Of a stretch of 64,000 nucleotides of DNA, positions 23,902 through 39,339 are shown piece after piece. The notes under the pieces are model-generated. The model saw nothing but the letters and a program-made list of their open reading frames with translations, made no database searches and was not told the DNA's origin. A program made the translations under genes and the position numbers. Location of the stretch: contig CP073750.1 in the NCBI GenBank assembly GCA_024398135.1, positions 4,022,471 through 4,086,470 of the forward strand, given 5' to 3'. The stretch is from a bacterium SCSIO 12643 (GTDB taxonomy: Bacteria > Bacteroidota > Bacteroidia > Flavobacteriales_G > Salibacteraceae). Position 1 is the first letter of the stretch; each line of letters starts with the position of its first letter.

Positions 23902-24447
23902 CTATTTCTTTAATTTCTTTTTATTCAAACTGAATGTTTTACTTCCACCTTTCCACTTCTTGGTAGCCCATTCATCACAAGTACCGTCACCATAATCAAT
24001 GGTCGCTACCCATTCTCCATTCTTTGAATAATATTTAATAGTTCCTTGAACAATGTAATTACAATCCTCTGTTTTTACCAACGGGTTAATAATTACTTTT
24101 TTGAAATCAGACTTATTTTGCTGTAAACTTAGTTTACTAGATTTACCATTCTTAATAATTGTAGCTTCACTAACATAGCCATTCCCAAAATCAACAATCG
24201 CTAAAACTTCGTTGGATTTTGAATATTCGATAACTCCATCAGAATAACAATCTGAATTGTTTAATGCTAAAGGTGAAACAATATTTGTTTGATAACCTGA
24301 AACAGGTAAAGTTAGGGAAGCTTCATCATATAAAATATCTGCCTCAACAGCAGCTTCGGGAGACAAGCTTTCTTTCTGACAAGACAACAGAGATACAGCA
24401 CAACAGCCTAAAGCCAATATGCCCATCCGGTTTCCAGAATTTTTCAT
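23902..24447 (-). CDS. Hypothetical lipoprotein
   Basis: Lipobox 'LALGCCAVSLLSC'; no recognisable motif. Confidence 0.5.
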   Translation of the reverse strand: MKNSGNRMGILALGCCAVSLLSCQKESLSPEAAVEADILYDEASLTLPVSGYQTNIVSPLALNNSDCYSDGVIEYSKSNEVLAIVDFGNGYVSEATIIKNGKSSKLSLQQNKSDFKKVIINPLVKTEDCNYIVQGTIKYYSKNGEWVATIDYGDGTCDEWATKKWKGGSKTFSLNKKKLKK

Positions 24448-24615: not shown

Positions 24616-24960
24616 ATGAAAAATCTTATCTTCTTCACGTTAATTTCAATTGGTATTTTTTCTTCCTCATGCGATGAAAGCATTTCTTGTCCGAATATGG
24701 AAGAACATCATCCTGATGCCATTTTAAGATGGACAGGTGACTATGCATTAGATGGCTGCGGTTACATCATCGTTATGGATCAGGTAGAATACAAACCTTT
24801 AAATGAAAATGTAATTGACCCCGGGTTTAAATTGGATTATGATGTAAAGGTTGCGGTTACTTATGAAATTCCACATGATGAAAAAGAAATTGCTTGTGGA
24901 ATGACCAAAGAACCTGTATACAGGGAAGGAATACAGATTATTTCACTCGAAAAGAAATAG
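24616..24960 (+). CDS. Hypothetical small lipoprotein
   Basis: 'MKNLIFFTLISIGIFSSSC' signal/lipobox. Confidence 0.5.
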   Translation: MKNLIFFTLISIGIFSSSCDESISCPNMEEHHPDAILRWTGDYALDGCGYIIVMDQVEYKPLNENVIDPGFKLDYDVKVAVTYEIPHDEKEIACGMTKEPVYREGIQIISLEKK

Positions 24961-24961
24961 T

Positions 24962-25441
24962 CTAGATATTCAAATTCATCCAATCTAGCAAACGCATCAT
25001 TAAACTCTTTTTAGCTTTAAACTCAGGATTACTTTTAAAATCCGCGAGTTGCTTTTCAAAGGTTTCTAAGGAAATAAACTTTTTAAGGTTTAATGACATG
25101 TAATGAACCAAAGCCTCCACCTCATGCCTAGGGAGTCCCAATGCAATTCCCAGATCATGACATAACTGGATTTCCTTTTCATGAGCGTACATATCCATCT
25201 TCATCATGGTTAATATCCTCCAGAAAAACTCTGTTTTTTGCTCATAAGTTTCTGGTGGAACAATAGATACCTGATCCAGATCTTTTTTTAAAGTCGCTAT
25301 CACTCCATGGTCTACTCCAAGAGTATTTGATAGCATGGTAATATTCATCTGCTCAAAATGACTCACAGATCCATCAGCCTGTGCCATTTTAATTAAAGCC
25401 AATATGAGAGATGTGTTCGGGTCTACGGAAATAGAATTCAT
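24962..25441 (-). CDS. TerB-like (tellurite-resistance TerB / DjlA-N-like) domain protein
   Basis: 'LILALIKMAQADGSVSHFEQ' matches the TerB 'A.ADG....E' helix; last gene of the co-directional cluster. Confidence 0.55.
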   Translation of the reverse strand: MNSISVDPNTSLILALIKMAQADGSVSHFEQMNITMLSNTLGVDHGVIATLKKDLDQVSIVPPETYEQKTEFFWRILTMMKMDMYAHEKEIQLCHDLGIALGLPRHEVEALVHYMSLNLKKFISLETFEKQLADFKSNPEFKAKKSLMMRLLDWMNLNI

Positions 25442-25505
25442 ATTAGTTAATTTATTTGTGTGTAATAAGTAAGATCAAGGAGAGTTTTACACTCTCCTTC
25501 TGGAA

Positions 25506-25901
25506 TTAATTTAAGGCCTCTTCCATCTGTTCTTTGGAAAGCACCTTATCCAAATTATCAATACTTAATTGAATCACTTTGGATAATTGTTCGTCAGTAA
25601 AGCCCATCAAACCGCCAATATGTTTGCAGATTTCAACCTCCTCACTATCTGCGGTCATATCTAAGCTCATTAAAGTCAGAATATCATACAACACCTGAAC
25701 TTTCCCGTCACTAGTAACAGGCGGTTCAGACTTAATAGACTCTACATTTAATGCAACCTCATTGAAATCAGCACTGGATAAACCTAACCTGATCGCAACG
25801 GTTTTAATGAATATAACTTCTTCTTGAGTTAATTTATTATCTGCCTTTGCAATCTTGATTAAGTTGGCAATGTGATTTTTCTTAATTTCTTTAGTCACCA
25901 T
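25506..25901 (-). CDS. TerB-like domain protein (second copy)
   Basis: 'IANLIKIAKADNKLTQEEVIFI' TerB-like motif; 24-bp gap after the giant ATPase gene. Confidence 0.6.
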   Translation of the reverse strand: MVTKEIKKNHIANLIKIAKADNKLTQEEVIFIKTVAIRLGLSSADFNEVALNVESIKSEPPVTSDGKVQVLYDILTLMSLDMTADSEEVEICKHIGGLMGFTDEQLSKVIQLSIDNLDKVLSKEQMEEALN

Positions 25902-25925
25902 AGTTTGTATTTTATATTATTAAAT

Positions 25926-28900
25926 TCAATTCTTTGAAAGTTCATTTTTAATTCCAATCAACCCTTCTGATACACGTTCTATCTGGGATAGAATCATGGC
26001 CATTTGGTTTTGATCACCAAAGCCTCTTAACCTCTGATTTTTCTGAAATTTTGTCTTAATCTCACTCCATCGGGAGATATCTTCTTCCCGCATCCAGCCT
26101 ACCATCTCCTTAAATTTCAACAGGTTTGCTTCTGAACTGGTGGTTAAAGTTTGCGATTCACTTTCGTACGCATTTAAAATCAGCAAATCCAATTCTTTAT
26201 CGTTCATAATTGGAACAATCTTTTCCGCAATTTTGTTCATATTCCTATAAGATCCTTGTAGTTTAAATGGCGGCTCTTTTCTAAACTGATCTTCCATTGC
26301 TGCGGACTTAATATATTCCTTATTCACTCGAAGCACGATATCTCTTACCTTGATCAACTTTTTTAATACCGAAACATAATCATTCATGTCTTCAACACTG
26401 TGATTAGACTCAAATTCTAAATCTCCTCTTTCTCCGGTGCTGGCCCAATCCATCAATTGATACAAGTCTTTTTGACTCTTACCTGATAGTTTTCTAAGGG
26501 TTGTATTCGAAGTTAAACAGTTTTCAATGTAACTGGATTCAAATGCTTCATCGGTTTCTCCAATGATATCTCCCAGGTTATAGATATCAGCTCTATTGGC
26601 TAGCATATCAGGAATCTTAAACTTATCACCACTCTCGGTATATGGATTACCAGCCATCACCACACATACCTTCTTCCCTCTTAAATCGTAAGTTTTTGAC
26701 TTTCCTTTATATACGCCTTCAATTTTTCTTTGCGCATCACTTAAGGAAATAAACTTTTGTAAAAACTCCGGATGACAATGTTGGATATCATCCAAATATA
26801 TCATCACATTATCTCCCATTTCCAAACCTAAGTTCAGCTTCTTAATTTCCTCACGCGCAGCAGAATTTGGAGCCATTTCAGGATCAAGAGACGTTGTTTC
26901 ATGTCCCAGTGAAGGACCATTTATTTTTAAGAATATAATGCCCAACCTACTGGCTATATACTCCATTAAGGTTGTCTTACCATACCCTGGAGGTGAAATC
27001 AGCAACAACATACCCATCAAGTCAGTTCTCTTATTATCATCAGATGTACCAATTTGTTTTGCAAGATTATCCCCAATTAATGGCAGATAAACCTGATTTA
27101 TGAGTTTGTTTCTCACAAACGAACTCATCACCTTAGGTTTCAATTCATCAAGTCTTAATTCTTCTTTATAACCTTTAATATATTCACGCTTCAGATGGTT
27201 AAACTGTTGATAAAACGGGATATTATATGTTTCAAACTTTCTTAAACGTCTAACAAAGTCATGATAATTAATGGTTAAGTCTTGCTCTTTAATTCTTGCA
27301 TGAATTCCTTGAAGTCCTTCTAGCTTAGAATTCAGGTCGACATTGATCAATTTTCGCTTTCCATGATCATCACCTATTAAAGCAACGGCTGCTTCGGATA
27401 AGACTTCATCAGCATACTCCAAATGGTTTTCAGCATATGCGCTTAACCAACTTTTAGCGATCGTATATTTTGAAGATGCTTCCCGAAGCTCGGTAATAGA
27501 ATTCGAGAATAATTTTGTCTTCTTATTCTCTTTCAAATAGGTATGAAATGCTTCACTTAAAGCATAAGATTCTTTACTTATGGAAAACTTATTATCATGT
27601 GCCAATTCGGCAAATAAATACCCGGAGATATCATTGCCGTGCACATTATTAAAAATATTACTTTGCTCAATAAACGCTTCAATTTGTTGACCTAATTCCA
27701 ATACCAAAGCATCATACACTTTTGTATCCGGAAAAGCGCTTTGGATATTACCCACGCTCTTGATCTGACTTAAAATCACATTTTTGTAATCCGAATCTAT
27801 TACAAATTGCCAGTAATAGATTGCACAGGCTCTAACCTCCGGAGCATACTTCAGTACACCTCCGCTTTGAATCATCTTTACTAATTCTTTAAGAATTAAC
27901 AAAGCATCATGATCATGTATACCTTTTACATATCCCTCATCATATCGCTTAGATATAACATCCGATATCAACGCTTCATATTTATCCTTAGGCCAGGCTA
28001 GTATTTGTGAAAAGTCAGAAAATTCAGATTCTAACTGCGACAAAATTTGCCAGGCCAAATACTCACTTCGATAGACCTCTTCATTCTCCGAAACTATGGA
28101 TTGATTCCACACAGGTTTGGTCTCCAAAAAATCTTTATCCTGAATTCTTTCGAAAAAGTTTGTACCTGTAATGTGATAATACATATCCTCACCTCTTGGT
28201 ACTATAGAAAGATCTAAACTTTGTTGATTCACAAAAAAACTATGGCGTCCAAATGAGATACTTCCCTCAGCAGAAATCAGTTCTGTTTTATCTTTTAACT
28301 GCCTAACAGCTTCTTCTCCCAATGACTTTAATTTACCCAGTATATCATCAGCCTTTACCGTATCTCCCAGTTCCAATAATTCTTCAACTACATTTCTGAG
28401 TTTATCTACCATTAAATCAGAGGCCAGATACCCATTAATTCCTTCAACGGTTTTTAATGACTTCAAACGATTTTCTACGCCTTTCAGCACCCTATCTGCT
28501 GAAGTTTGGAGTCTGGAAATTCTTTTATTTTTCTTATCAGTTAAGTAAACTTTTCTGGATTCGAAAGCATTATAAATTTCCTCTCGTTTATCGTTTAACT
28601 GACCTAAAAACTCATCAAAATCACTAAATCTACCTTCCAGTTCTTCTAATTGAATCAACAGTTTAGTCAGATATTCGTCACACTTTTGTACCGAGTCAGA
28701 GATATCCAGATAATTTACCATCCCCTGACTAATCAGTTTCAATTGCGATATAAATACAGCCTCTCCTTCAACTACCTGAAGTTCTTTTCTTTTCCGCTTT
28801 ATGGTCGCATATATCTGATTAAATTGCGAATAGATATCAGAGATATTGTTAATGATCTTAGTCGTTTCAGTAGCATCTTCAATCTTTAGATTACTCACAA

Positions 28901-30812
28901 TCTCTATGAGCATTTCTAAATCACGTGATGTTTTTAGAATTTGTTCTTCAAATTCATCCACTTCTACAACCTTGGAGAGCTTAGGTGCATTTTCCTGAAA
29001 CTCTAAGATCCTGTTTTTATAAAAATCCAGTGACTCTGCGCTCAATAAAAACGAAACACACTTCTCAGAAATAAATTCATTCTTTTCTTCAATCTCAGTT
29101 TCGAAATCATCGACCATGTCAAGATCAATGTATCTTAAGTCCTTAAGAGATATAACCTCACCTCTTAAAACCCTTAATTGCGTTAAAATCTCAACAAAAT
29201 CATCAATTCTTTCAAACTTTGAGACATTAATCCTGGACTGGAGTTCTTTGAACTTTACTTCAAAGTCAGACTGTTTCTGCTTTGTATCTTTCTTTATCCG
29301 GGTAACCTTATCAAATTCATCTATTGCCAATGAAGCTGAAGATTTGATTCCATCTAATGGCTCTTTCAGGTTAAATGTTTCCTGTTTATCCAACCAATAA
29401 TACGAATCGGAAATATCAGTAGTTTTCTTCACCAGATCTACATATAAATTGTCATATGTATCTTCTTTTTTTAGCAAATGAAGAACTTCTCCACATTCTG
29501 CCATAACCGTTACAATCTCTTTATTTCCAATTTTAGAAATTAAAGAATCTTTGTTTTCCGGAATGGTAAAGGCTTCATTTTTAAATGGTGTCTCCCATAT
29601 TTGAATTGCATGATGATTTTGTGCTTCTTCCTCTCCCTTGAAATAACACAACTCTCCATTTGGAAAAAGCGTATAACCGTGACATATCGTTGGCGAAAAA
29701 ACTTCCTGAGTAATCACATTATACGTAAGCAAAACATAGTTTCCAGTAACATTATTATGAAAGACATACAGATAATCCTCCCCATTTGATGATGAAATGG
29801 TTTGTTGATACTGCATTTGATCTACATCCAGATCAAATATTTTATACGTACCATTTTGTAAATAATATCCTCTTGGAAAAATCACACCATGATCATTGGG
29901 TAGTAGCACACAAGCCTCTCTAATGGCATCAACGCGCAACGCTTCTGATATTTTTTTGTTAAACAGAATGTATCGATAATCATTCTCTTTATAAGGTTTG
30001 ATCTTCAAAAAGATCAAATTACCCACTATAGCATAACTTATTTCGGCATCATCCAGAGTTTGATCCATAGCTTCCACCGGTTCTTCATATACGCCTCTAC
30101 CTTCATCTGTATTATCTTCAACTTTAATGGTTAAATCACCACCAATAGTTTCAACAAACACCTGGTCCTCAATAGACACATGTGGATGCGCTCCATTTCG
30201 ATACATATCTCTGGTCGTTCGAATCCAAGAAAACTCATGTTGATTCGGAATAACAACCTCATGATCACTTCGGTTATCTATATAAACCAACTTATTGGTT
30301 TCTATTCTCCATTTAAAGGTTTTAATATCATTTTTTCCTTTTCCGATTAGGAAAACCATATACAGAAATGGACCTATCTCTACGAATCTATTAAATTGGG
30401 TCTCTTTATAGTATTTATACAACTGGTTAAAATCATCTAAAAACGTTTCATCACCTATCCAGGATAAACCTTGTAAATGAAATTGGTGATTATCATATTG
30501 ATATACGCTAAAAACATCATTTAACTTAGTCACGGTTCTTAAACCAATATGCACATTATATCCGAAAATGAATTTGTCACCCAGAGAAATCATATCTCTT
30601 GGAACACATTTGTTTTCAGTCGTAATTCGCTCAGTAGTCAATAATTTCATCTCTACTGAACCGAATAACTCTTTTCGCACAGAATTAAGCTGATCTATTC
30701 TTTGCCTTAATTCCACACCATGTTTACCAAGTCTGTTAAGAATGATCTCATACGTTCCCTCTTCTAATTCTGATACTTGAGATTTTTTATTTTCTTCTTG
30801 AGATTCTAACAT
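25926..30812 (-). CDS. Giant (1628 aa) multidomain protein with a C-terminal AAA+ ATPase (AAA_5/MoxR-like) module; N-terminal ~1250 aa of unknown function
   Basis: Walker A 'ISPPGYGKTTLMEY' (encoded ~26966-26992); Walker B 'VMIYLDDIQH'; sensor/Arg-finger-like 'VVMAGNPYTESGDKFKIPDMLANRADIYNL'; long coiled-coil/helical stretches upstream. Confidence 0.7.
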   Translation of the reverse strand: MLESQEENKKSQVSELEEGTYEIILNRLGKHGVELRQRIDQLNSVRKELFGSVEMKLLTTERITTENKCVPRDMISLGDKFIFGYNVHIGLRTVTKLNDVFSVYQYDNHQFHLQGLSWIGDETFLDDFNQLYKYYKETQFNRFVEIGPFLYMVFLIGKGKNDIKTFKWRIETNKLVYIDNRSDHEVVIPNQHEFSWIRTTRDMYRNGAHPHVSIEDQVFVETIGGDLTIKVEDNTDEGRGVYEEPVEAMDQTLDDAEISYAIVGNLIFLKIKPYKENDYRYILFNKKISEALRVDAIREACVLLPNDHGVIFPRGYYLQNGTYKIFDLDVDQMQYQQTISSSNGEDYLYVFHNNVTGNYVLLTYNVITQEVFSPTICHGYTLFPNGELCYFKGEEEAQNHHAIQIWETPFKNEAFTIPENKDSLISKIGNKEIVTVMAECGEVLHLLKKEDTYDNLYVDLVKKTTDISDSYYWLDKQETFNLKEPLDGIKSSASLAIDEFDKVTRIKKDTKQKQSDFEVKFKELQSRINVSKFERIDDFVEILTQLRVLRGEVISLKDLRYIDLDMVDDFETEIEEKNEFISEKCVSFLLSAESLDFYKNRILEFQENAPKLSKVVEVDEFEEQILKTSRDLEMLIEIVSNLKIEDATETTKIINNISDIYSQFNQIYATIKRKRKELQVVEGEAVFISQLKLISQGMVNYLDISDSVQKCDEYLTKLLIQLEELEGRFSDFDEFLGQLNDKREEIYNAFESRKVYLTDKKNKRISRLQTSADRVLKGVENRLKSLKTVEGINGYLASDLMVDKLRNVVEELLELGDTVKADDILGKLKSLGEEAVRQLKDKTELISAEGSISFGRHSFFVNQQSLDLSIVPRGEDMYYHITGTNFFERIQDKDFLETKPVWNQSIVSENEEVYRSEYLAWQILSQLESEFSDFSQILAWPKDKYEALISDVISKRYDEGYVKGIHDHDALLILKELVKMIQSGGVLKYAPEVRACAIYYWQFVIDSDYKNVILSQIKSVGNIQSAFPDTKVYDALVLELGQQIEAFIEQSNIFNNVHGNDISGYLFAELAHDNKFSISKESYALSEAFHTYLKENKKTKLFSNSITELREASSKYTIAKSWLSAYAENHLEYADEVLSEAAVALIGDDHGKRKLINVDLNSKLEGLQGIHARIKEQDLTINYHDFVRRLRKFETYNIPFYQQFNHLKREYIKGYKEELRLDELKPKVMSSFVRNKLINQVYLPLIGDNLAKQIGTSDDNKRTDLMGMLLLISPPGYGKTTLMEYIASRLGIIFLKINGPSLGHETTSLDPEMAPNSAAREEIKKLNLGLEMGDNVMIYLDDIQHCHPEFLQKFISLSDAQRKIEGVYKGKSKTYDLRGKKVCVVMAGNPYTESGDKFKIPDMLANRADIYNLGDIIGETDEAFESSYIENCLTSNTTLRKLSGKSQKDLYQLMDWASTGERGDLEFESNHSVEDMNDYVSVLKKLIKVRDIVLRVNKEYIKSAAMEDQFRKEPPFKLQGSYRNMNKIAEKIVPIMNDKELDLLILNAYESESQTLTTSSEANLLKFKEMVGWMREEDISRWSEIKTKFQKNQRLRGFGDQNQMAMILSQIERVSEGLIGIKNELSKN

Positions 30813-30932
30813 TTAGGTGTCATTTATACATTATTGAAATGAACATAGAGTATTAAATTGATGGACATACCATGGTCTCCCTTGAAACGAAATTCATGGT
30901 TAATCCATCAAAATCAACGATATAAAATTGAT

Positions 30933-33077
30933 CTATGAGATTCCCAATGAACTTGGTGTCACATTATCAATACCTGTTGTTTTAGCCATTTTTAATAGCT
31001 CTTCAAGCATTCCTTTTTCTTTGGAGTCATTAGTTTGTTGCATCATTTTAAAGATCAACATAGACACCGATAGGTTCTTTAAATCTTCAGAATCGATACC
31101 AAACTGTCGAATAAGGTTTTGTATCTTCTCCTTTAAGGAACTTCCTTCTATATCATCTAAAAAATGAGATTTTAGTCCCTTTAAAGTTTCACTGTTATCA
31201 ATAGCCCTATCTACAGATTTCCCATTTGAAATCGCTCCAATAATCTTATCAAAGAATACCGTTTCACCACCCACAATATCAATCTTAGCAGTTTTCAATG
31301 CATTGGAAATCACCTCTGCCTGTGCATCAGCTATATCTTTTTGAATTTGAATTTGAGCCAACTCCACCTGTTTCGCTTTATCCAATTCCAGTTTAAACTC
31401 TTCGTGTTCTTTACCAACACCATCCAGTTTCTTCATTGCTTCAGCTTTTTCGTGAATTCCCATCGCTTCCACATGATATTTTTCTTTGCTTACTGACGCT
31501 TCAGCCATTCCTTTCTTCTCATCAGCAACAGCTTTCGCTTCAATCACCTGTGCTTCTGCTGAACCTAATTCAATATCAGATTTAGCTTGTGCAAATGATT
31601 TCGCCTCAATTCCTTTAGCCTCTGCAAACGCTTTAGCTTCAATAACTGAAGCCTCTGCTTCTCCTTGCTTTTCTCTAGCTTCAGCTTTGGCTTCTAACAC
31701 TTTGGCTTCCGCAATTCCATGTGCTGCTTCTTTCGCTGCCTCTGCATCAGCTAGTGTTTTAATTGCTTCTGCTTTTTGAACAGAAGAATCTTGCTCGGCC
31801 TTAGCATCAATAAGAACTTTTTCAGCTCTAAATTCAGCGGCTTTTTTACCTGCCTCTGCGGCTTTAATCTGTTGCACTAAATCGGCTTCAGCTAACTCTT
31901 CAGCTTTTGTAATTGCAACCAGTTTTTCACGATCTGCCTGAGCCTTGGTTTTCGTATCCTTAATACTCTCCTCTTCAACAACTACGGTTTTCTCAATAGA
32001 AACTCTTTCTCGAATAACCTCCTGAACGTTTTTCTTTTCTTCCTCAATTGACTTTTCTTTCTCAATTTGAGCAAGAGTTACAATTCGTTCTCTTTCTGTT
32101 ACTTCAAGCATTCTATCTTTTTCTACTTTCTCTGTCTCAACAGCCTTAGTACGTTCTTTGTTTTTGGCAGCAACGATTACTTCTCGATCTTTATTTTGCT
32201 CTGCAATTTGAATTTCTTCTTCGGTAATAATTCTAGCCTTTTCCGCCTTCAGCCTTTCTTCCTGCTCCACTTTAGCTATTTCAGCTTCCTCTCTGGACTT
32301 GATATTCGCAACTTCTCTTTTCTGCTTTTCCTCCGTTTCTGCAAGTTGTTTTTCTAACTGTAAGATGGTTTCTCTTGCTTCTACGTTTTGTTTTGTGATC
32401 GTTTTCTCCTTTTCTTTCTCAATCAAATTGGATTGAATTTTTTCTTTTGAAGTGATTTCAATAATCTTCTTGATACCTTCAGCATCCAGAATATTTTTCT
32501 CATCCATATGATCTAAAGGCGTTTGCTCCAAATAATCAATTGCCGCATCATCCAGGATATAACCATTTAAATCTGTTCCTAAACTATTCAGAATTTCTTC
32601 TCTGAAATCATCACGTTTATTATATAAGTCTGCAAAATCAAACTTCTTACCTACTGTTTTAAGGGCTTCTGAGAACTTCGAATCAAACAGATTGTTTAAC
32701 ATTTCCTGATCTGAAGCCCTCACACAACCAACTGACTGTGCTACCTGAATCACATCATCAGAGGTTTTATTTACACGTACAAAAAACGCAACTTTGATAT
32801 CCGCACGCATGTTATCCTGACATACTAATCCATCCGAACCATGTCTTTCAATCAATATCGTTTTCAACGAAATATCCATCATTTCCAAACGATGCAATAC
32901 AGGAATGACCATGATACCATTAAAAGATACTTTGGTTCCTCCAACTCCGGTTCTCACCAGTGCCTGGCCTTGCGAGGCTTTTCTATACCATTTGGCAATC
33001 ATGGCAAATAAGCCTATTACCACCACAACTAGAATAACAATTCCAGTGAATACAGTATTCTGTAACATTTCCATCAT
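30933..33077 (-). CDS. Flotillin-family protein (SPFH/band-7 domain + long Glu/Ala/Lys coiled coil), YqiK-like
   Basis: N-terminal TM; SPFH-like 'GGTKVSFNG...RADIKVAFFVRV'; EA-rich repeats 'EAKAEAREKQGEAEASVIEAKAFAEAKGIEAK'. Confidence 0.85.
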   Translation of the reverse strand: MMEMLQNTVFTGIVILVVVVIGLFAMIAKWYRKASQGQALVRTGVGGTKVSFNGIMVIPVLHRLEMMDISLKTILIERHGSDGLVCQDNMRADIKVAFFVRVNKTSDDVIQVAQSVGCVRASDQEMLNNLFDSKFSEALKTVGKKFDFADLYNKRDDFREEILNSLGTDLNGYILDDAAIDYLEQTPLDHMDEKNILDAEGIKKIIEITSKEKIQSNLIEKEKEKTITKQNVEARETILQLEKQLAETEEKQKREVANIKSREEAEIAKVEQEERLKAEKARIITEEEIQIAEQNKDREVIVAAKNKERTKAVETEKVEKDRMLEVTERERIVTLAQIEKEKSIEEEKKNVQEVIRERVSIEKTVVVEEESIKDTKTKAQADREKLVAITKAEELAEADLVQQIKAAEAGKKAAEFRAEKVLIDAKAEQDSSVQKAEAIKTLADAEAAKEAAHGIAEAKVLEAKAEAREKQGEAEASVIEAKAFAEAKGIEAKSFAQAKSDIELGSAEAQVIEAKAVADEKKGMAEASVSKEKYHVEAMGIHEKAEAMKKLDGVGKEHEEFKLELDKAKQVELAQIQIQKDIADAQAEVISNALKTAKIDIVGGETVFFDKIIGAISNGKSVDRAIDNSETLKGLKSHFLDDIEGSSLKEKIQNLIRQFGIDSEDLKNLSVSMLIFKMMQQTNDSKEKGMLEELLKMAKTTGIDNVTPSSLGIS

Positions 33078-33105
33078 AATTTTATTTTTTAGCGTTAATT
33101 AAATT

Positions 33106-33768
33106 TTAGTCAATTGTTTCATAGGGCTCCACGATGTAAAAACTTGCGTCTTTCTCGTGGTTAACAACCAACATTTTTTGCCCTCTTTTGATATGTCCTC
33201 TTTTTGTTTTTATGTTAATTCTGTAATTCGATCCGGATAATAAAACTTCACCTTGTCCTAGTTTTTGATCACTTGCACTAATGATCACTTTACCTACAGT
33301 TCCTAATAAATCTTGTGTATTCTCAGTTTCCTTATCTAATATGCTAAAGATCTTAACAAAGGGATAAGTAGACGGTTTAGCAATTAATAAGCTTACTATA
33401 AAGTTTGGAATTAAGAATACAAGTGATAAAATGAATGAAGTATTTCCCAGAATATAATTGGTCATAATAGAAATCACCCACATTGGTAAAATCAAAAAAG
33501 TTAAAAAGACCATTAAAGGGATTTTATCCAAATTAAAAAATGCCAATATGTTGTTTATCCAGGAAATAGAAGCTTCACTCCCTCCATCAACCTCTGCATC
33601 CGCATCCAGATCAATGTCCGAATCTAAATCAATATCTACATCGATATCAAATGAGCTAATATCCACCGCGCCTAATATAACCAGGAGCCAATAAAACACT
33701 ACAAATACCAATAAAGCCGTAGGGATAAAATTCACTGCCGAAAAAGCAGCATGAAATAATTCAAGCAT
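33106..33768 (-). CDS. NfeD/YqiJ-like membrane protein (TM helices + acidic linker + C-terminal OB-fold-like domain)
   Basis: Two TM blocks flank the acidic 'DIDVDIDLDSDIDLDADAEVDGG'; C-terminus 'GTVGKVIISASDQKLGQGEVLLSGSNYRINIKTKRGHIKRGQKMLVV'; directly upstream of flotillin, as in the E. coli yqiJK operon. Confidence 0.65.
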   Translation of the reverse strand: MLELFHAAFSAVNFIPTALLVFVVFYWLLVILGAVDISSFDIDVDIDLDSDIDLDADAEVDGGSEASISWINNILAFFNLDKIPLMVFLTFLILPMWVISIMTNYILGNTSFILSLVFLIPNFIVSLLIAKPSTYPFVKIFSILDKETENTQDLLGTVGKVIISASDQKLGQGEVLLSGSNYRINIKTKRGHIKRGQKMLVVNHEKDASFYIVEPYETID

Positions 33769-33826
33769 TTAAATTTTAAATTTCATTTTATTAAGAAAAC
33801 AAGGGAGTTCAGGTCTGGAATATGTC

Positions 33827-34534
33827 TTACTTATCTAAACCCATTTTTGCTTTTAGAGCTGCCAGTTCATCACTTGCTTTAAGTTGATCTGCACCATCCA
33901 AAGCTTTTTCAATATCTTCATCAACAGACCTACTCTCATTTGCAATTACACCGTATGATTCTGCCAACGCTTCTTCCTGCGCCACTTTATCTTTCATTCT
34001 TTCTAATAAAGAAACAGTATCCGTAGAATCAATTTGAGCCAATTGCTTGTTCAAATTCTTGGTTGCTGTACTCACTTTCACACGTGCTTTAAGCGTTTTC
34101 AGCTCAGACTCCCATTTGCTGATATTAGACTTTATAGTCTTCACATTTGTTTCCAGCTGACTTACCGATTTTTCAAATCGATTTTTTTCTGTCAAAGCAT
34201 GAGCTGCATGTTTAATATTTTCTTCTTTAAGCACTAATGCTTCCGTAGCCAATCTATCGGCTTCACTAGCATCTAACTCATTATTCTGAGCTCTTTTCAA
34301 AAGCAACATCGCTTTACCTTCATAATCTTTCGACTTTTCTATATAAGACTCATGATCATTTCTGGCTCTAATCGCCATGGCTTTTACTTCTGCCAAAGCT
34401 TTAAGACTCTTATCCAGGTCTTCTTTCATATCACGAATTCCCTGCTCAGTAAGTTTTATAGGATCTTCTAATTTATCAACCGCAGAATGTGCTTCCGCCT
34501 GCCCTATCTTGAATAATCTATTAAATAAATTCAT
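33827..34534 (-). CDS. PspA/IM30 (Vipp1/ESCRT-III superfamily) protein
   Basis: 'MNLFNRLFKIGQAEAHSAVDKLEDPIKLTEQGIRDMKEDL' is the characteristic PspA N-terminus; all-helical coiled coil. Confidence 0.85.
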   Translation of the reverse strand: MNLFNRLFKIGQAEAHSAVDKLEDPIKLTEQGIRDMKEDLDKSLKALAEVKAMAIRARNDHESYIEKSKDYEGKAMLLLKRAQNNELDASEADRLATEALVLKEENIKHAAHALTEKNRFEKSVSQLETNVKTIKSNISKWESELKTLKARVKVSTATKNLNKQLAQIDSTDTVSLLERMKDKVAQEEALAESYGVIANESRSVDEDIEKALDGADQLKASDELAALKAKMGLDK

Positions 34535-34546
34535 AGCTAAGTTTTT

Positions 34547-34942
34547 TTAGTTTTTTGAAATCTGTATTAGTTCCTCTGAATACTCTGACAACAGTAGTGT
34601 CAACGAGTTTATTGAACCTTCTAACTCATTAATATCTAAGTTCGAAATTTGCAAAGTATCCCTGAATATCAATTTTTCACCTGATTCATCCAAGACAAAT
34701 GCGCCATGAATAATATCTCTATTCTTTTGCAATAATTTTTTGAATATCACCGGATCAGTATCTTTGACATCCAATAAATGTTGTTCCATAATCAAAATAG
34801 GATCGGCACAACCAATTACAAGATTTTTAATCCCGATACTCTCATCCTCTACAACCAAGATATTATCATTCGAATTTTCTAGGGTAACAGAATGGCCAAG
34901 ATCAATTAGGTAATTTTTAACTTTCTCGAAGCTGTCTTTCAT
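34547..34942 (-). CDS. YjfI-like (DUF2170-type) small protein, frequent upstream partner of PspA-family YjfJ
   Basis: 131 aa; 12-bp gap to the PspA gene; assignment from size, position and memory of the E. coli yjfI-yjfJ arrangement. Confidence 0.4.
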   Translation of the reverse strand: MKDSFEKVKNYLIDLGHSVTLENSNDNILVVEDESIGIKNLVIGCADPILIMEQHLLDVKDTDPVIFKKLLQKNRDIIHGAFVLDESGEKLIFRDTLQISNLDINELEGSINSLTLLLSEYSEELIQISKN

Positions 34943-35122
34943 TTCTGGTTATTTTTTAATAATTAAACTTTTCTAGAGCAGCATCAAATCTAAGATTTTT
35001 TTCTGCTCTTTGGGTATATACTTAAAGCTATTTATCAAGAACATAATGCTCTAATATTTACGCCCTTTTTTTCCGTTCCTTAAACATTAATGCTAAATTT
35101 GTTTTACAATTATACTATTTTT

Positions 35123-35150
35123 ATTAGCATATGCAAAAATAATTAGCATA
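35123..35150. promoter_or_regulatory. Operator-like repeats upstream of the XRE regulator: ATTAGCATA x2 (19-bp spacing) including palindrome GCATATGC
   Basis: Copies at 35123-35131 and 35142-35150; palindrome 35127-35134; 12-40 bp upstream of the ATG at 35162. Confidence 0.35.
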
Positions 35151-35161
35151 AATTTATCCAC

Positions 35162-35821
35162 ATGTCAAAAATTGGAAAAAACATCAAAAAGATACGCGCC
35201 ACCAAAAACCTCAGTCAAGCTGCATTCGCTGAAATATTTGGCTTAACCAGAGCCAGTGTTGGTGCTTACGAAGAAGGAAGAGCTGAACCCAAAACAGACA
35301 TAATTCTTCAAATTGCTAAACATTTTAGCATTCCTATTGAAACTCTGCTATCAAAAGAACTAACGGTTAATCAGTTATCAAATTTTAAAATACAAACTTC
35401 AAAAACCGATACTCCAACTAAACCCGTACTGTTTATTAATAACTGGAATTGGAGCTCGTTTATTGAAAAGCAAATTGTGACAGATCAATTTACCGTTTAC
35501 TTCCCCAATCAATTTATTAATGGAGATATTGCATTTGAAATTAACACGCATATTCAATCAAATTTTAATGTTGGTGACATCATAATATGTGAACATAATA
35601 ATTCTATAAACATTCCCGGACTTTATTTATTTATAGCAAAAGATCAGGCTTTTATTTCTGAGTCAAGTAGAATCAAAAAAGAAAACATTAGCTTTGATCA
35701 GGCTTTCCTGGTCAAACAGAAAATAGAAACCATTTCACCCCAAACCTCCTCAAACCTTGAAGATCGAATAGCTCAAATGGAGATTCAAATGGAAAAACTA
35801 ATCCAAAAACTCAATAAATGA
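35162..35821 (+). CDS. XRE-family HTH transcriptional regulator with a C-terminal uncharacterised beta-rich domain (CI/LexA-like architecture)
   Basis: 'IKKIRATKNLSQAAFAEIFGLTRASVGAYEEGRAEPKTDIILQIAKHFSIPIETLL' HTH_XRE; 4-bp overlap (ATGA) with the nuclease gene. Confidence 0.75.
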   Translation: MSKIGKNIKKIRATKNLSQAAFAEIFGLTRASVGAYEEGRAEPKTDIILQIAKHFSIPIETLLSKELTVNQLSNFKIQTSKTDTPTKPVLFINNWNWSSFIEKQIVTDQFTVYFPNQFINGDIAFEINTHIQSNFNVGDIIICEHNNSINIPGLYLFIAKDQAFISESSRIKKENISFDQAFLVKQKIETISPQTSSNLEDRIAQMEIQMEKLIQKLNK

Positions 35822-36507
35822 ACACTGTAATCCAACTTATTAAAGATTCTATCGAGGATCATGCGCTGACGAGAAGTGAAAAACGAATTTTAAAAGAAAC
35901 CATTATCGAGAAGCGCTTTGACAAGCGTGAACTTCATATTTTAAGAAGTGAAATTTTTAAAATTGCCAGAAGCCAAACCGACTTGATCCCCACCCCGAAT
36001 CTAATCGACTGGATAGAATCGGTTACAAAGCTTACATTGGTTTTAGATGATGAAAAAATTGAAAAATCTCGGGTCTATTTTAGTCCGGGTAGTGAATGTA
36101 AAAATGCCATTATTCATCATATTCAACAAGCCAGATCCAATCTTAAAATTTGCCTTTTCACCATAAGTGACAATGACATTAGCTCCGAAATTGTTGATGC
36201 GCACCTAAGAGGCATTAATGTTCAAATTATAACCGATGACCAAAAAATGTACGATATGGGATCAGATATTCGTTTGTTTCGAAAGCGAAACATCCCCATC
36301 AAAGTAGATTGTCATTACGGACACATGCATCACAAATTTTGTATTATTGACAATGAGCATGTTATTACAGGCAGTTACAATTGGACAAAAAGTGCGGAGG
36401 ACCGAAATTATGAAAACATTATTATCAACACAGAACTCAACATTATCAAAGCCTTTGAAAATGAATTCAATGAACTTTGGATGGAATTAGAATCAATTAA
36501 TAAATAG
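35818..36507 (+). CDS. Phospholipase-D-superfamily nuclease (single HKD motif, Nuc/Zucchini-like) with a ~100-aa N-terminal extension
   Basis: HKD signature 'HHKFCIIDNEHVITGSYNWT' (H-x-K-x4-D-x6-GSxN). Confidence 0.75.
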   Translation: MNTVIQLIKDSIEDHALTRSEKRILKETIIEKRFDKRELHILRSEIFKIARSQTDLIPTPNLIDWIESVTKLTLVLDDEKIEKSRVYFSPGSECKNAIIHHIQQARSNLKICLFTISDNDISSEIVDAHLRGINVQIITDDQKMYDMGSDIRLFRKRNIPIKVDCHYGHMHHKFCIIDNEHVITGSYNWTKSAEDRNYENIIINTELNIIKAFENEFNELWMELESINK

Positions 36508-39339
36508 TTGATATTTAAAATTCACACGAAATTAGGGCGAATCAAAACAAATAACTTGCGTATCAACCTTTTAACTAATATTCGATTATATGATAGCAAA
36601 AAATTTGCTTTAATCATCTTTATGCTATTGGGTTTTAATGGGTATTCGCAAGATATCCCCCCTTCCGTTTACTATTTCAATTATTCTGTAAGTGATGGTT
36701 TACCCAGTGCAGAAACATACGATGTATATCACGATTCAAAGGGATATATCTGGGTTGGTACAGATAAAGGTATTGCGCAATACGATGGTCATCGGTTTAA
36801 TGTTTACACTACAAATGACGGTTTAACAGATAATACGGTTTTACAATTTCATCAGGATGTTAAAGACCGCCTATGGATGATTACCTATAATCGCAAACTT
36901 TGCTACCTGGAAGATGGAGATTTTTTACCGTACGAATACAATGACACAATTGTTAAATACCTGTCTGAATACTACTTAGGCAATACCATTACAAATTTCA
37001 CTATTGACTCTAAAAACAATGTGCATCTCGATCTGACCAACTTCATTAGCCTGGATATTGACTCCAATGGAACTGCCCGCATTTTTGAGTCTAGTTACAA
37101 ACCGGAAATACAGACTATTTTCGAGAACATTTCATCTATCCCCTCGATTTTAGAACAATCAAACTATATTCTAAACTTGAATTATTTCAAACGCAAATTC
37201 ACAGTAAAGAATCATCGAGGAGAACTCATAAACATTTATAAAAGAACAAAACACACCATAGTTTCTGGAAGTGATGGCGTACACTTTTATGACCCCATAT
37301 CCTTCCAAATCAAAAAGTCTATCTTAAGTCAATATTCAATTACCGGAATCTCTTCCGATTTTGAATCCGGATATTGGTTCTCCACGCTAAACTCCGGTAT
37401 CATTTACGTGCCTAATCTTAATATCACCTTTTACTCCACTAAAAATGAAGGGATGAGTTCTAACATCCATTATGTCATTCCTCAAAACCAAAACATCATT
37501 TTCGGATTTACAGATATGAGTCAATATGAAATAGATCAAAAATCTCGAAATCTTAAACGCGTATCTAAAGAACTAAACGTTTCTAAAGTTCCAAATAAAA
37601 TCCATAAAATTGGGATAAAATTTGAATATGCGACTAGACTCCCTCCTCTTAAACCTACCAGTAGAGCTATCTTAAAACTTCAACCCAATTTAATTTTATA
37701 CGCACCACACAATTCTGGGTTAAGCTTCTGGAATATTGAAAAATCTCAGGAAGAAAAAGAAAAACATATAGACTCACCAAAAATCAATAAAATATTCAAG
37801 GACTATAAGAATAACATTTGGACAGGAACCAAGTCTGGCTTGTACAAACTTGATACCATTAAAAATGTTTTAGAACTACAAACCAACCACTCTTTACTGC
37901 AAAATATAGCTGTACAGGATATCACGGAGACATCCGATTCTGTTATTATTATTGCAACTCGCGTAAATGGACTATTACTCAAATACCAAAGCTCAATAAT
38001 CTCATATAGAACTAATAATGGATTATTAAGCAATACGATTAATCAGATAATTTTTGACTCAACGCATCAAATTCTTTGGGTTGCCACAAACAAAGGTGTC
38101 AACGGTTTAAAATGGAAAAACAAATCGTTTACCAAAAGCTACAAACTTTCCACAAATAGCGGGATCAACTCTCCAGATATTCGCCATATTTGGATACAAT
38201 CTGACACATTGTTTTTAGCTTCAAATTCTGGGGTTTCTTTTATAAAATATGATGATTTAGACAAAAACAATTCTCCTCCCAAAATCTATATCAAGAATAT
38301 TTTAATCAACAATATTCCAACAGATCAATTTGTTAACCCAATTCTCTCACCCCATCAAAACAATTTAAACTTCCAATTTCAAGGAATCTCCTATCATTCG
38401 TTTAATAGTATCCAATACAAATACAAACTAGCCGGTTTGGATTCAAACTGGCAAACTTCAAAAAATCCTGATCTTCATTATTTAGCCATCCCTCCAGGAA
38501 AATACACATTAAGAATAAAAGCCATTAACGTAGATGGCATAGAAAGCGAATCTATTCAAATCCCATTTACCATTCTAACTCCTTTTTGGAAAACCTGGTG
38601 GTTTACTTTTCTTACTATATGTTTTGTTGTCACGGTTACAGTAATCATAGTAAGGCGTCAATTTGTTAAACACAAAGCAAAAGCCAAACTTCAAATTGAC
38701 CTACAAAAGTTTAAAGCCATGAATTTACAATCCAAAATGAACCCTCATTTCATTTTTAATTCTTTAAATTCCATTCAGCATTTTATTATGGCTAACAATA
38801 CTGAAAAAGCTAATGACTATCTTTTAGATTTTTCTGCACTAATCCGGCAAGTACTTAAAAACTCCGATTCTCCTGAAATTACTCTGATTAATGAAATAGA
38901 CACGATTCAACTCTACATAGATTTAGAGCTTAAAAGACTAAATGGGTCCTTTGATTTTAAAATTGAAATTGGCCCGGATATTGATGAAAATAAATGCCTC
39001 ATTCCTGCTCTATTGATTCAACCATATGTGGAAAATGCTATATGGCATGGAAAATTACATCAAACTACAAATGGGATGGTGATTATAAGAATAAAAAAAC
39101 AAGAAGAGACATTGTATTTTGAAATTGAAGATAACGGTGTAGGCTACTATAAAACAACACTAAAAAAGACATCCAAATCTTATGGAACCGGGGTAACTAA
39201 AGAAAGAATTAAATTAATTACTTCTTTAAATACTAAATTATCTGAAGTTACGATATTAAAAGCACAGAACCTAGAATGTACTAAGCCATATGAAGGCACT
39301 TTAATAAAATTTAATTTACCGTATAAACTAGCTACTTAA
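36508..39339 (+). CDS. Large sensor kinase: periplasmic two-component-regulator beta-propeller repeats + Y_Y_Y domain + TM + LytS-type His_kinase domain
   Basis: Repeated 'G...W.GT..GL..YD' propeller units; TM 'WWFTFLTICFVVTVTVIIV'; 'MNPHFIFNSLNSIQHF'. The start codon is uncertain: the ORF opens with TTG, and the first in-frame ATG is at 36625. Confidence 0.8.
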   Translation: MIFKIHTKLGRIKTNNLRINLLTNIRLYDSKKFALIIFMLLGFNGYSQDIPPSVYYFNYSVSDGLPSAETYDVYHDSKGYIWVGTDKGIAQYDGHRFNVYTTNDGLTDNTVLQFHQDVKDRLWMITYNRKLCYLEDGDFLPYEYNDTIVKYLSEYYLGNTITNFTIDSKNNVHLDLTNFISLDIDSNGTARIFESSYKPEIQTIFENISSIPSILEQSNYILNLNYFKRKFTVKNHRGELINIYKRTKHTIVSGSDGVHFYDPISFQIKKSILSQYSITGISSDFESGYWFSTLNSGIIYVPNLNITFYSTKNEGMSSNIHYVIPQNQNIIFGFTDMSQYEIDQKSRNLKRVSKELNVSKVPNKIHKIGIKFEYATRLPPLKPTSRAILKLQPNLILYAPHNSGLSFWNIEKSQEEKEKHIDSPKINKIFKDYKNNIWTGTKSGLYKLDTIKNVLELQTNHSLLQNIAVQDITETSDSVIIIATRVNGLLLKYQSSIISYRTNNGLLSNTINQIIFDSTHQILWVATNKGVNGLKWKNKSFTKSYKLSTNSGINSPDIRHIWIQSDTLFLASNSGVSFIKYDDLDKNNSPPKIYIKNILINNIPTDQFVNPILSPHQNNLNFQFQGISYHSFNSIQYKYKLAGLDSNWQTSKNPDLHYLAIPPGKYTLRIKAINVDGIESESIQIPFTILTPFWKTWWFTFLTICFVVTVTVIIVRRQFVKHKAKAKLQIDLQKFKAMNLQSKMNPHFIFNSLNSIQHFIMANNTEKANDYLLDFSALIRQVLKNSDSPEITLINEIDTIQLYIDLELKRLNGSFDFKIEIGPDIDENKCLIPALLIQPYVENAIWHGKLHQTTNGMVIIRIKKQEETLYFEIEDNGVGYYKTTLKKTSKSYGTGVTKERIKLITSLNTKLSEVTILKAQNLECTKPYEGTLIKFNLPYKLAT

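Follow-up and report, generated by a model that had tools for sequence, protein, structure and literature searches.

Which of its neighbours does a giant AAA+ ATPase work with when it is encoded among membrane proteins, and to what end? The question is raised by a seven-gene cluster on the minus strand of a 64,000-nucleotide stretch of contig CP073750.1 (bacterium SCSIO 12643, Bacteroidota; assembly GCA_024398135.1), the whole of which is referred to here as the window. In transcription order, the cluster encodes a CesT/Tir-type chaperone-like protein, a PspA/IM30-family protein, an NfeD-like membrane protein, a flotillin-like protein, a 1628-residue ATPase, and two TerB-like proteins (TerB1 and TerB2). 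It stands back to back with two genes for a helix-turn-helix (HTH) regulator and a phospholipase D (PLD)-like hydrolase. We propose, with a probability of roughly 0.6, that the operon and the divergent HTH–PLD pair constitute an inducible and dispensable module for membrane maintenance, with the ATPase working on or at a flotillin scaffold.

The ATPase is 100% identical to an NCBI protein of bacterium SCSIO 12643 and has more than 3,900 homologues. A pattern scan of a collection with one genome per species gave 584 confirmed matching stretches; 80 of these 584 loci were analysed and, with four more, made up a comparison set of 84 loci, in which the window proteins were mapped onto six-frame open reading frames (ORFs). 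The 80 loci belong to Bacteroidota, Planctomycetota, Verrucomicrobiota, Desulfobacterota, and Calditrichota, all at ~50% ATPase identity. NfeD and flotillin, scored only where the locus extends at least 3.5 kb upstream, lie directly 5′ of the ATPase on the same strand in 67 of 70 loci from at least five phyla (42/45 in Bacteroidota and 25/25 in other phyla and unassigned loci, i.e., 18/18 in Planctomycetota and 7/7 in the rest). The other genes are distributed more narrowly. PspA is found at 26/42 Bacteroidota ATPase loci and CesT, always just 5′ of PspA, at 23/42. The divergent HTH gene is present at 24/42, which amounts to 24 of the 26 loci with PspA and none without it. All three score 0/23 in other phyla and unassigned loci. 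A TerB gene follows the ATPase in 3/44 Bacteroidota loci and in 0/28 of the others, and a PLD homologue occurs anywhere at the locus in 8/65 cases overall (Bacteroidota, 6/42; others, 2/23, both Planctomycetota, with PLD on the same strand and 5′ of NfeD). Evolution has kept YqiJ/NfeD, flotillin, and the giant ATPase together as a fixed core; among the scored loci, PspA, the CesT-type protein paired with it, and the CI-like HTH regulator are a Bacteroidota-specific add-on. An earlier annotation of the same DNA, made from the letters alone (the sequence-only reading), had proposed a functional cluster that joins membrane proteins (YqiJ/NfeD, flotillin) to a PspA/Vipp1-family protein; the cluster is indeed conserved, its arrangement recurring in dozens of genomes, far beyond chance. 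Of the companions it had expected for the ATPase, flotillin and NfeD are near-universal, PspA is lineage-specific, and TerB is rare.

No extra conserved gene separates flotillin from the ATPase, the inserts differing from locus to locus. Full-length ATPase homologues of 33–49% identity also occur in plasmid-collection records of Proteus, Vibrio, Halomonas, Pseudomonas, Streptomyces, Deinococcus, and Nonomuraea, several of which, at megabase size, are likely to be chromosomes or chromids. On pQBR103 of Pseudomonas fluorescens SBW25 the order is YjfI, PspA, rhomboid, DUF2491, DUF350, DUF1190, glutathionylspermidine synthase, a hypothetical protein, SPFH, and ATPase, and in Streptomyces a hypothetical protein, flotillin, and ATPase; the clusters of Proteus mirabilis and Vibrio campbellii are called homologous by ATPase homology alone.

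In the window, the module and its parts are arranged as follows:

35818–36507, plus strand: PLD-like single-HKD hydrolase, 229 residues (PLDc_2, 2.6e-30)
35162–35821, plus strand: divergent Xre/Cro-type HTH regulator, 219 residues (HTH_3, 5e-11)
34943–35161, no strand: AT-rich putative divergent control region (GC content 24.7%, −7 box, hexamer repeats)
34547–34942, minus strand: CesT/Tir-type chaperone-like protein, 131 residues (CesT_Tir_1, 5.1e-53)
33827–34534, minus strand: PspA/IM30-family protein with an ESCRT-III fold, 235 residues (PspA_IM30, 4.1e-37)
33106–33768, minus strand: YqiJ/YuaF-type NfeD-like membrane protein, 220 residues (family-level YqiJ_N matches, hydropathy)
30933–33077, minus strand: flotillin-like SPFH/Band-7 protein, 714 residues (Band_7, 1.8e-9)
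30813–30932, minus strand: largest internal gap, 120 nucleotides, with a stem-loop (minimum free energy −26.2 kcal/mol)
25926–30812, minus strand: giant soluble AAA+ ATPase, 1628 residues (DUF3686, 1.5e-180; DUF7902, AAA, AAA_5)
25506–25901, minus strand: TerB-like protein 1, 131 residues (TerB, 1.1e-6)
24962–25441, minus strand: TerB-like protein 2, 159 residues, last gene of the predicted operon (TerB, 1.1e-8; DUF533, 3e-4)
25346–36546, no strand: 11.2-kb gain/loss unit, absent from the syntenic relative L087

The seven minus-strand ORFs of the ORF listing have exactly the coordinates first given for them, with gaps of 12, 58, 28, 120, 24, and 64 nucleotides from CesT to TerB2. The 219-nucleotide region upstream has a GC content of 24.7% against 35.1% for the cluster, so that the AT-rich leader already described is accurate too. 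The TerB2 stop codon lies 1 nucleotide from that of a convergent lipoprotein-like ORF (24616–24960, plus strand). Because the ORFs are co-directional and 12–120 nucleotides apart, −7 boxes occur upstream only, and a convergent gene closes the series, we infer from the sequence that the seven genes are co-transcribed as one operon. Terminator-like sites are not enriched (7 vs. 4.8 expected). Neither are sigma-70 promoter-like sites (34 vs. 40.8 expected), a consensus unsuited to Bacteroidota, for which reason TAnnTTTG, the −7 box consensus of this phylum, was used instead.

Two structured gaps lie within the predicted operon. The stem-loop between flotillin and ATPase has a z-score of −2.1, and relatives L081 and L083 carry unrelated palindromes at the same place; it faintly hints at an intra-operon attenuator or RNA-stability element that may set the flotillin:ATPase ratio. 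The gap between the TerB genes holds a 9-bp GC-containing hairpin (25477–25499, minus strand; AAGGAGAGT...ACTCTCCTT) with a weak T tract.

The labels given to the individual proteins at the outset all hold, some with qualifications: PspA, flotillin, AAA_5, and both TerB domains stand, NfeD stands at the family level, and the YjfI-like label of the first gene stands in a modified sense. That protein does not match the DUF2170/YjfI profile and matches CesT_Tir_1 (PF22550) over its full length; it is YjfI-like by role and belongs to another CesT/Tir family. Residues 1–231 of the PspA protein align to solved Vipp1/PspA structures (3e-14). The NfeD-like protein alone has no significant Pfam match (YqiJ_N, E = 0.28), while YqiJ_N matches 31 of 39 of its homologues (best, 3.6e-8), and the family profile matches Bacillus subtilis YuaF (2k14) weakly (E = 0.27). 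Four hydrophobic segments are seen in its hydropathy profile, and its C-terminal domain is rich in beta structure. The flotillin-like protein begins with a hydrophobic segment within residues 1–19, followed by a Band_7/SPFH domain (38.3 bits vs. a cut-off of 23.6) and a long E/A/K-rich region. The Pfam Flot domain was not detected in it, and the single sequence found no match among Protein Data Bank sequences; the family profile matches E. coli QmcA (8z5g) at 1e-3.

What kind of machine is the ATPase? AlphaFold2 models built from 31-sequence alignments (predicted local distance difference test, pLDDT, 81 and 77) predict an N-terminal helix (18–50) and a beta-propeller (56–407, DUF3686), then helical bundles (424–844, ~420 residues, including DUF7902), a small beta domain (851–889), a helical domain (915–1146), and finally a MoxR-like AAA+ module (~1235–1420) that precedes a C-terminal helical region. 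With this module, Foldseek retrieved the MoxR-type NorQ and CbbQ first (template modelling (TM) scores 0.5–0.6, target-normalised), then MCM, RuvB, and Lon, and AAA_5 scores 28.2 bits against a cut-off of 22; the original AAA_5/MoxR-like assignment is therefore upheld. In the model, a beta-hairpin lies between Walker B and sensor 1, which we read as the pre-sensor-1 hairpin and which would separate the module from the classical clade that includes Vps4. The modelled fold is MoxR-type and NorQ/CbbQ-like, not Vps4-like. Walker A (GYGKTT), a Walker B DD (1341–1342), sensor-1 N1389, and R1407 do not vary among 12 aligned homologues, and the sensor-1 region reads NP...G...IP...L.NR. Hydropathy analysis found no hydrophobic segment in the ATPase. 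A fold search with the N-terminal 1150 residues gave generic propeller and propeller-solenoid matches only (TM < 0.15), which were not interpreted. At 24 loci, mostly Planctomycetota (L017, L020–L022, L024, L026, L031–L034, L036, L040, L041, L043, L045, L050, L051, L053, L056, L058, L059, L061–L063), the ATPase carries a conserved C-terminal extension of ~140–190 residues that is absent in Bacteroidota. These tails were considered as fused TerB domains and rejected, the conserved sequence having no Pfam match.

The extent of the module is shown by its loss. The relative L087, which shares ~82% identity and the synteny of both flanks with the window, has ~140 nucleotides (L087:9852–9991) in place of window positions 25346–36546. 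The missing 11.2-kb block holds the PLD, HTH, CesT, PspA, NfeD, flotillin, ATPase, and TerB1 genes together with the first 32 codons of TerB2, and this truncated TerB2 argues for a deletion in the relative rather than an insertion in the window lineage. Locus L091 likewise keeps the flanking synteny and lacks the cluster. Its TerB2 remnant is 141 residues long, against 124 in L087, and, judged by remnant length rather than by junction alignment, fits a second, independent deletion; both are metagenomic genomes, and together they suggest recurrent independent loss. The histidine kinase/LytTR pair next to the module is missing from L091 as well. Recent horizontal transfer was weighed and set aside, since the GC content of the module is that of the window and neither an integrase nor repeats were seen at the indel junction, nor mobility genes in the flanks. 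The nine genes behave as one dispensable unit, and their shared loss ties the divergent HTH–PLD pair (35162–36507), overlooked by the sequence-only reading when it drew the cluster bounds, to the operon.

On either side of the module lie an extracytoplasmic function (ECF) sigma/FecR pair, TonB-type receptors, and histidine kinases and two-component regulators. Two lipoprotein-like ORFs next to it (24616–24960, plus strand, 114 residues; 23902–24447, minus strand, 181 residues) have a signal peptide and a Cys and no Pfam match; both adjoin the TerB2 remnant in L087 and L091 too, and are outside the module.

How would such a unit be controlled? Outside coding sequence on the minus strand, TAnnTTTG occurs in the upstream region only and in none of the internal gaps. 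One of these Bacteroidota-type −7 boxes, TAGATTTG, starts at 34992 on the minus strand, 50 nucleotides 5′ of the CesT ATG, and relatives have TAGATTTG or TAAATTTG 5′ of their CesT genes. Three TGCTAA/TTAGCA repeats (~35086–35156) sit beside the HTH start, and the control region also contains inverted repeats. In 23 homologous HTH–CesT intergenic regions (the window and 22 loci), TGCTAA/TTAGCA occurs 27 times, compared to 3.5 ± 1.8 in shuffles. We take the −7 box as a putative promoter; the repeats may be an operator for the divergent regulator or may belong to its promoter. The HTH protein, the presumed repressor of the operon, has a degenerate C-terminal domain resembling S24 (LexA/CI-like) and retains an S24-like “GD...” block in the alignment; the catalytic Ser position shows no conservation and is lost altogether from the window copy, so a ligand- or partner-controlled repressor is more likely than a self-cleaving one. 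The PLD gene overlaps the HTH gene by 4 nucleotides and is therefore probably co-transcribed with it. Its product carries an HxKxxxxD...GSxN motif (HHKFCIID...GSYNWT), and no hydrophobic segment was found by hydropathy.

The TerB pair presents two faces. Both proteins exceed the gathering score and share 27% identity. When phmmer and Pfam were run on 34 small downstream ORFs and 27 C-terminal extensions, L015 alone yielded a TerB match, and the idea that the ATPase is generally partnered by TerB was rejected. Seen from the TerB side, the linkage is strong: the TerB2 family has only 25 clusters among 5.8 billion proteins, and of nine contexts examined, including the window, six are ATPase-linked, two are the truncated remnants left in L087 and L091, and one stands alone (L086). 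The pair follows the ATPase directly on the 3′ side in the window, L083, L085, L090, and L092. In Cryomorpha ignava (L084) it lies 3 kb downstream, an HTH_17/PIN_3 toxin–antitoxin pair and an acetyltransferase (L084:12851–14609) being inserted between the two. The TerB pair is an add-on of a narrow clade, and its membership of the cluster in the window lineage, asserted from the letters alone, is confirmed.

In L090 (9554–15431) and L092 (1914–8076), the TerB pair is followed by a module of S-adenosylmethionine decarboxylase, an ion channel, DUF4178, DUF350, and spermine synthase. This polyamine/DUF4178/DUF350 module is another of the PspA-associated modules of Ravi et al. 2024 (PMC11237479), and where it adjoins the ATPase or the TerB genes, two PspA-associated classes of operon come together as a single supercluster. 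A search for a conserved gene downstream of the ATPase produced only the DUF4178/DUF350 module as a recurrent neighbour, in four loci; the polyamine/DUF4178/DUF350 (YjfL-like) module lies downstream of the ATPase in L006, L011, L070, and L075. On pQBR103 (L088) the same two classes are fused in reversed order. Assembly GCA_002163335.1 has two paralogous clusters (L081 and L090), one with CesT, the TerB pair, and the downstream polyamine module, and the other with PspA, lacking CesT and TerB, beside spermine synthase genes.

Taken together, these observations can be rationalized as a membrane-maintenance mechanism. (i) Induction: the HTH protein would repress the divergent promoters until an envelope signal lifts repression. 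(ii) Scaffold assembly: flotillin and its NfeD partner would build an SPFH scaffold at the inner face of the cytoplasmic membrane. (iii) Remodelling: the soluble ATPase, presumed to be a hexamer (~1.1 MDa) because AAA+ ATPases typically are, would dock on the scaffold via its propeller and helical arms and spend ATP to assemble, remodel, or dismantle the scaffold or its clients, for which HflK/C-FtsH offers a precedent. (iv) Sealing: PspA, held by the CesT-like chaperone, would be delivered to the same membrane patch, where it may seal or stabilise the membrane; the TerB proteins could assist the ATPase as adaptors or sensors close to the membrane, and the PLD enzyme could modify local phospholipid.

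Several observations weigh against the proposed module. The flotillin label comes from one N-terminal Band_7 match, which individually reaches E ≤ 0.01 in only 2 of 33 homologues, and co-transcription is likewise deduced from sequence. Three Bacteroidota loci (L052, L055, and L057) have the ATPase and ~10 kb of upstream DNA and no detectable flotillin or NfeD; they may be second copies or rearranged loci. The Walker B motif of the ATPase is DD where DE is usual, which may make hydrolysis slow or switch-like. MoxR ATPases usually have VWA partners, and no VWA domain was found in 15 proteins scanned from the cluster and its neighbours. Finally, the searched literature contained no experimental study of the operon type or of the ATPase (DUF3686, PF12458).

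A bolder form of the proposal, which we advance tentatively and consider rather doubtful as a whole, is that the ATPase is the missing ATP-driven remodeller of flotillin (SPFH) scaffolds, conserved in at least seven phyla and corresponding to HflK/C-FtsH minus the protease. Wired to PspA in Bacteroidota, the one machine would couple flotillin microdomains to ESCRT-III-like membrane repair, and in the window clade the TerB pair would be dedicated, previously unrecognised membrane-proximal adaptors or sensors.

Among the alternatives, the one that survives best, although unlikely, is a bacterial analogue of ESCRT-III/Vps4, in which the ATPase would disassemble and recycle PspA polymers, and flotillin and NfeD would only mark the site. 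PspA does have the ESCRT-III fold and shares the operon with the ATPase in the 26 Bacteroidota loci and on pQBR103, and the role is vacant, no Vps4-like ATPase being known in bacteria according to a 2025 review (PMC7619361). At the sequence level, the ATPase also resembles p97, VAT, and Rix7, in the neighbourhood of Walker A only. Gene linkage weighs against it: a neighbouring PspA is missing in 16/42 Bacteroidota loci and present in 0/23 elsewhere (at the locus level only, as the genomes may encode PspA elsewhere), and flotillin and NfeD accompany the ATPase nearly everywhere. The predicted structure points the same way, the fold being nearest to MoxR-type NorQ/CbbQ with a hairpin before sensor 1 and the N-terminus a beta-propeller with no MIT-like domain. 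ESCRT-III/Vps4 as the organising principle, an analogy drawn in the sequence-only reading, is not supported.

A defence function is quite improbable. Here, flotillin, PspA, and TerB sensors would trigger the ATPase and a PLD nuclease or phospholipase effector in an anti-phage or abortive-infection response, as had also been suggested. Known defence systems do include TerB domains and enzymes of the PLD family, the module comes and goes among close relatives, a copy resides on the megaplasmid pQBR103, and the TerB region has a weak, sub-threshold match to the PADLOC candidate PDC-S48 (E = 7e-4). Yet none of the seven proteins matches a PADLOC-DB v2 model significantly (marginal matches are to unrelated models, E = 4.5e-4 to 4.8e-3), 50,697 phage records contain no homologue, and the flanks carry regulatory and TonB-type genes rather than defence genes. 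The ATPase is ~50% identical across phyla in a fixed synteny, unlike fast-evolving defence genes, the module has the GC content of its host, and the would-be PLD effector is present in only 8/65 loci.

It is very hard to uphold that the protein is a DNA-repair ATPase placed by chance beside membrane genes. The Pfam description of DUF3686 and the NCBI product names of the family do read “DNA repair ATPase”, there are weak matches to RuvB_N/RuvB near Walker A, and the fold search retrieved RuvB and MCM too. This name is without a traceable experimental basis in the searched literature, the likeness to RuvB is generic to AAA+ P-loops and far under the cut-offs (21.8 bits vs. 282 for the family), and Pfam, the structural model, and the fold search found no DNA-binding or nuclease domain in the ATPase. 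What supports the name is this generic P-loop similarity only, and the gene context contradicts it, the 67/70 linkage to flotillin and NfeD being incompatible with chance.

In E. coli, yjfIJ-like and yqiJK-like pairs are separate. A chance juxtaposition of unrelated housekeeping membrane genes, with which that separation would agree (it is consistent with PMC11237479), is refuted by the same gene order in dozens of genomes from several phyla and by the loss of the block as a unit in L087.

The preferred reading, a membrane-maintenance module built around flotillin, bears on the assembly and dismantling of flotillin and PspA structures in bacteria. The operon family is a concrete and widespread candidate for driving these dynamics with ATP, and the hypothesis is sharpened by the identity of the conserved partner of the ATPase, flotillin/NfeD and not PspA. 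Since natural 11.2-kb deletion variants exist, the module is dispensable and knock-outs should be viable. Cultured organisms with homologous clusters, such as P. fluorescens SBW25 with pQBR103, may be easier to work with. The TerB pair, a small and nearly system-specific family, could reveal the role of the TerB domain.

How does the module compare with what has been described? The operon type lacks a name, but it had been recognised before; the sequence-only reading had seen no named system in it. Ravi et al. 2024 (mSystems, PMC11237479, section 19 and Table S3) described in silico a Bacteroidetes operon class of CesT/Tir–PspA, YqiJ/YuaF, Band-7/flotillin, and a beta-propeller/coiled-coil AAA+ ATPase, to which an HKD phospholipase D is sometimes added, as reported for some Proteobacteria. 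Their Dokdonia donghaensis example (ANH61663.1) has a divergent cHTH + protease gene, CesT/Tir, PspA, YqiJ/YuaF, Band-7/flotillin, and the AAA+ ATPase. The window, from the same phylum, matches this example gene for gene and in order, down to the divergent cHTH + protease gene, and all five features tested (CesT–PspA, YqiJ/YuaF, flotillin, the propeller/coiled-coil ATPase, and the divergent regulator) are present. It differs in two respects: the operon ends in two TerB-like genes, which are unmentioned in that paper and its supplement, and PLD joins the predicted transcription unit of the regulator. Their survey centres on PspA, whereas our counts centre on flotillin/NfeD and the ATPase. The window operon is of a kind already described, in a clade-specific variant with a TerB pair and an HTH-linked PLD.

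Shango, which we take to consist of TerB, a helicase, and an ATPase, and the ter tellurite-resistance cluster likewise encode a TerB-domain protein with an ATPase. The window has no helicase and no significant PADLOC match; the TerA, TerC, TerD, and TerZ genes were not found beside its TerB genes, so that it shares only TerB domains with the ter cluster. An ESCRT-III-fold PspA is encoded beside an AAA+ ATPase here as in the pairings ESCRT-III/Vps4 and PspA–PspF. The window ATPase is unlike Vps4 in having no MIT domain, a beta-propeller N-terminus, and an AAA+ module of another clade, and, instead of a consistent ATPase–PspA adjacency, PspA is off the locus in most lineages; nor is it a PspF-type enhancer-binding protein. 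NorQ and CbbQ give the best structural matches to the AAA+ module, for which AAA_5 is above its cut-off, whereas the window has no VWA partner gene, a Walker B DD, and ~1200 extra N-terminal residues.

The closest parallels are on the flotillin side. As in E. coli yqiJ–yqiK and B. subtilis yuaF–floT, a YqiJ/YuaF-type gene lies directly 5′ of a flotillin-like SPFH gene, although these pairs, as described, are without a giant ATPase, PspA, CesT, or TerB. An NfeD-type partner accompanies the SPFH protein in stomatin operons as well. HflK/C-FtsH represents an SPFH scaffold paired with an AAA+ machine. The window ATPase differs from FtsH in being soluble, MoxR-like, and devoid of a protease domain, with ~1200 residues of propeller and helical domains. 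As in HflK/C-FtsH and other SPFH–AAA+ pairings, a membrane-anchored SPFH oligomer is coupled, genetically and by analogy physically, to an AAA+ ATPase.

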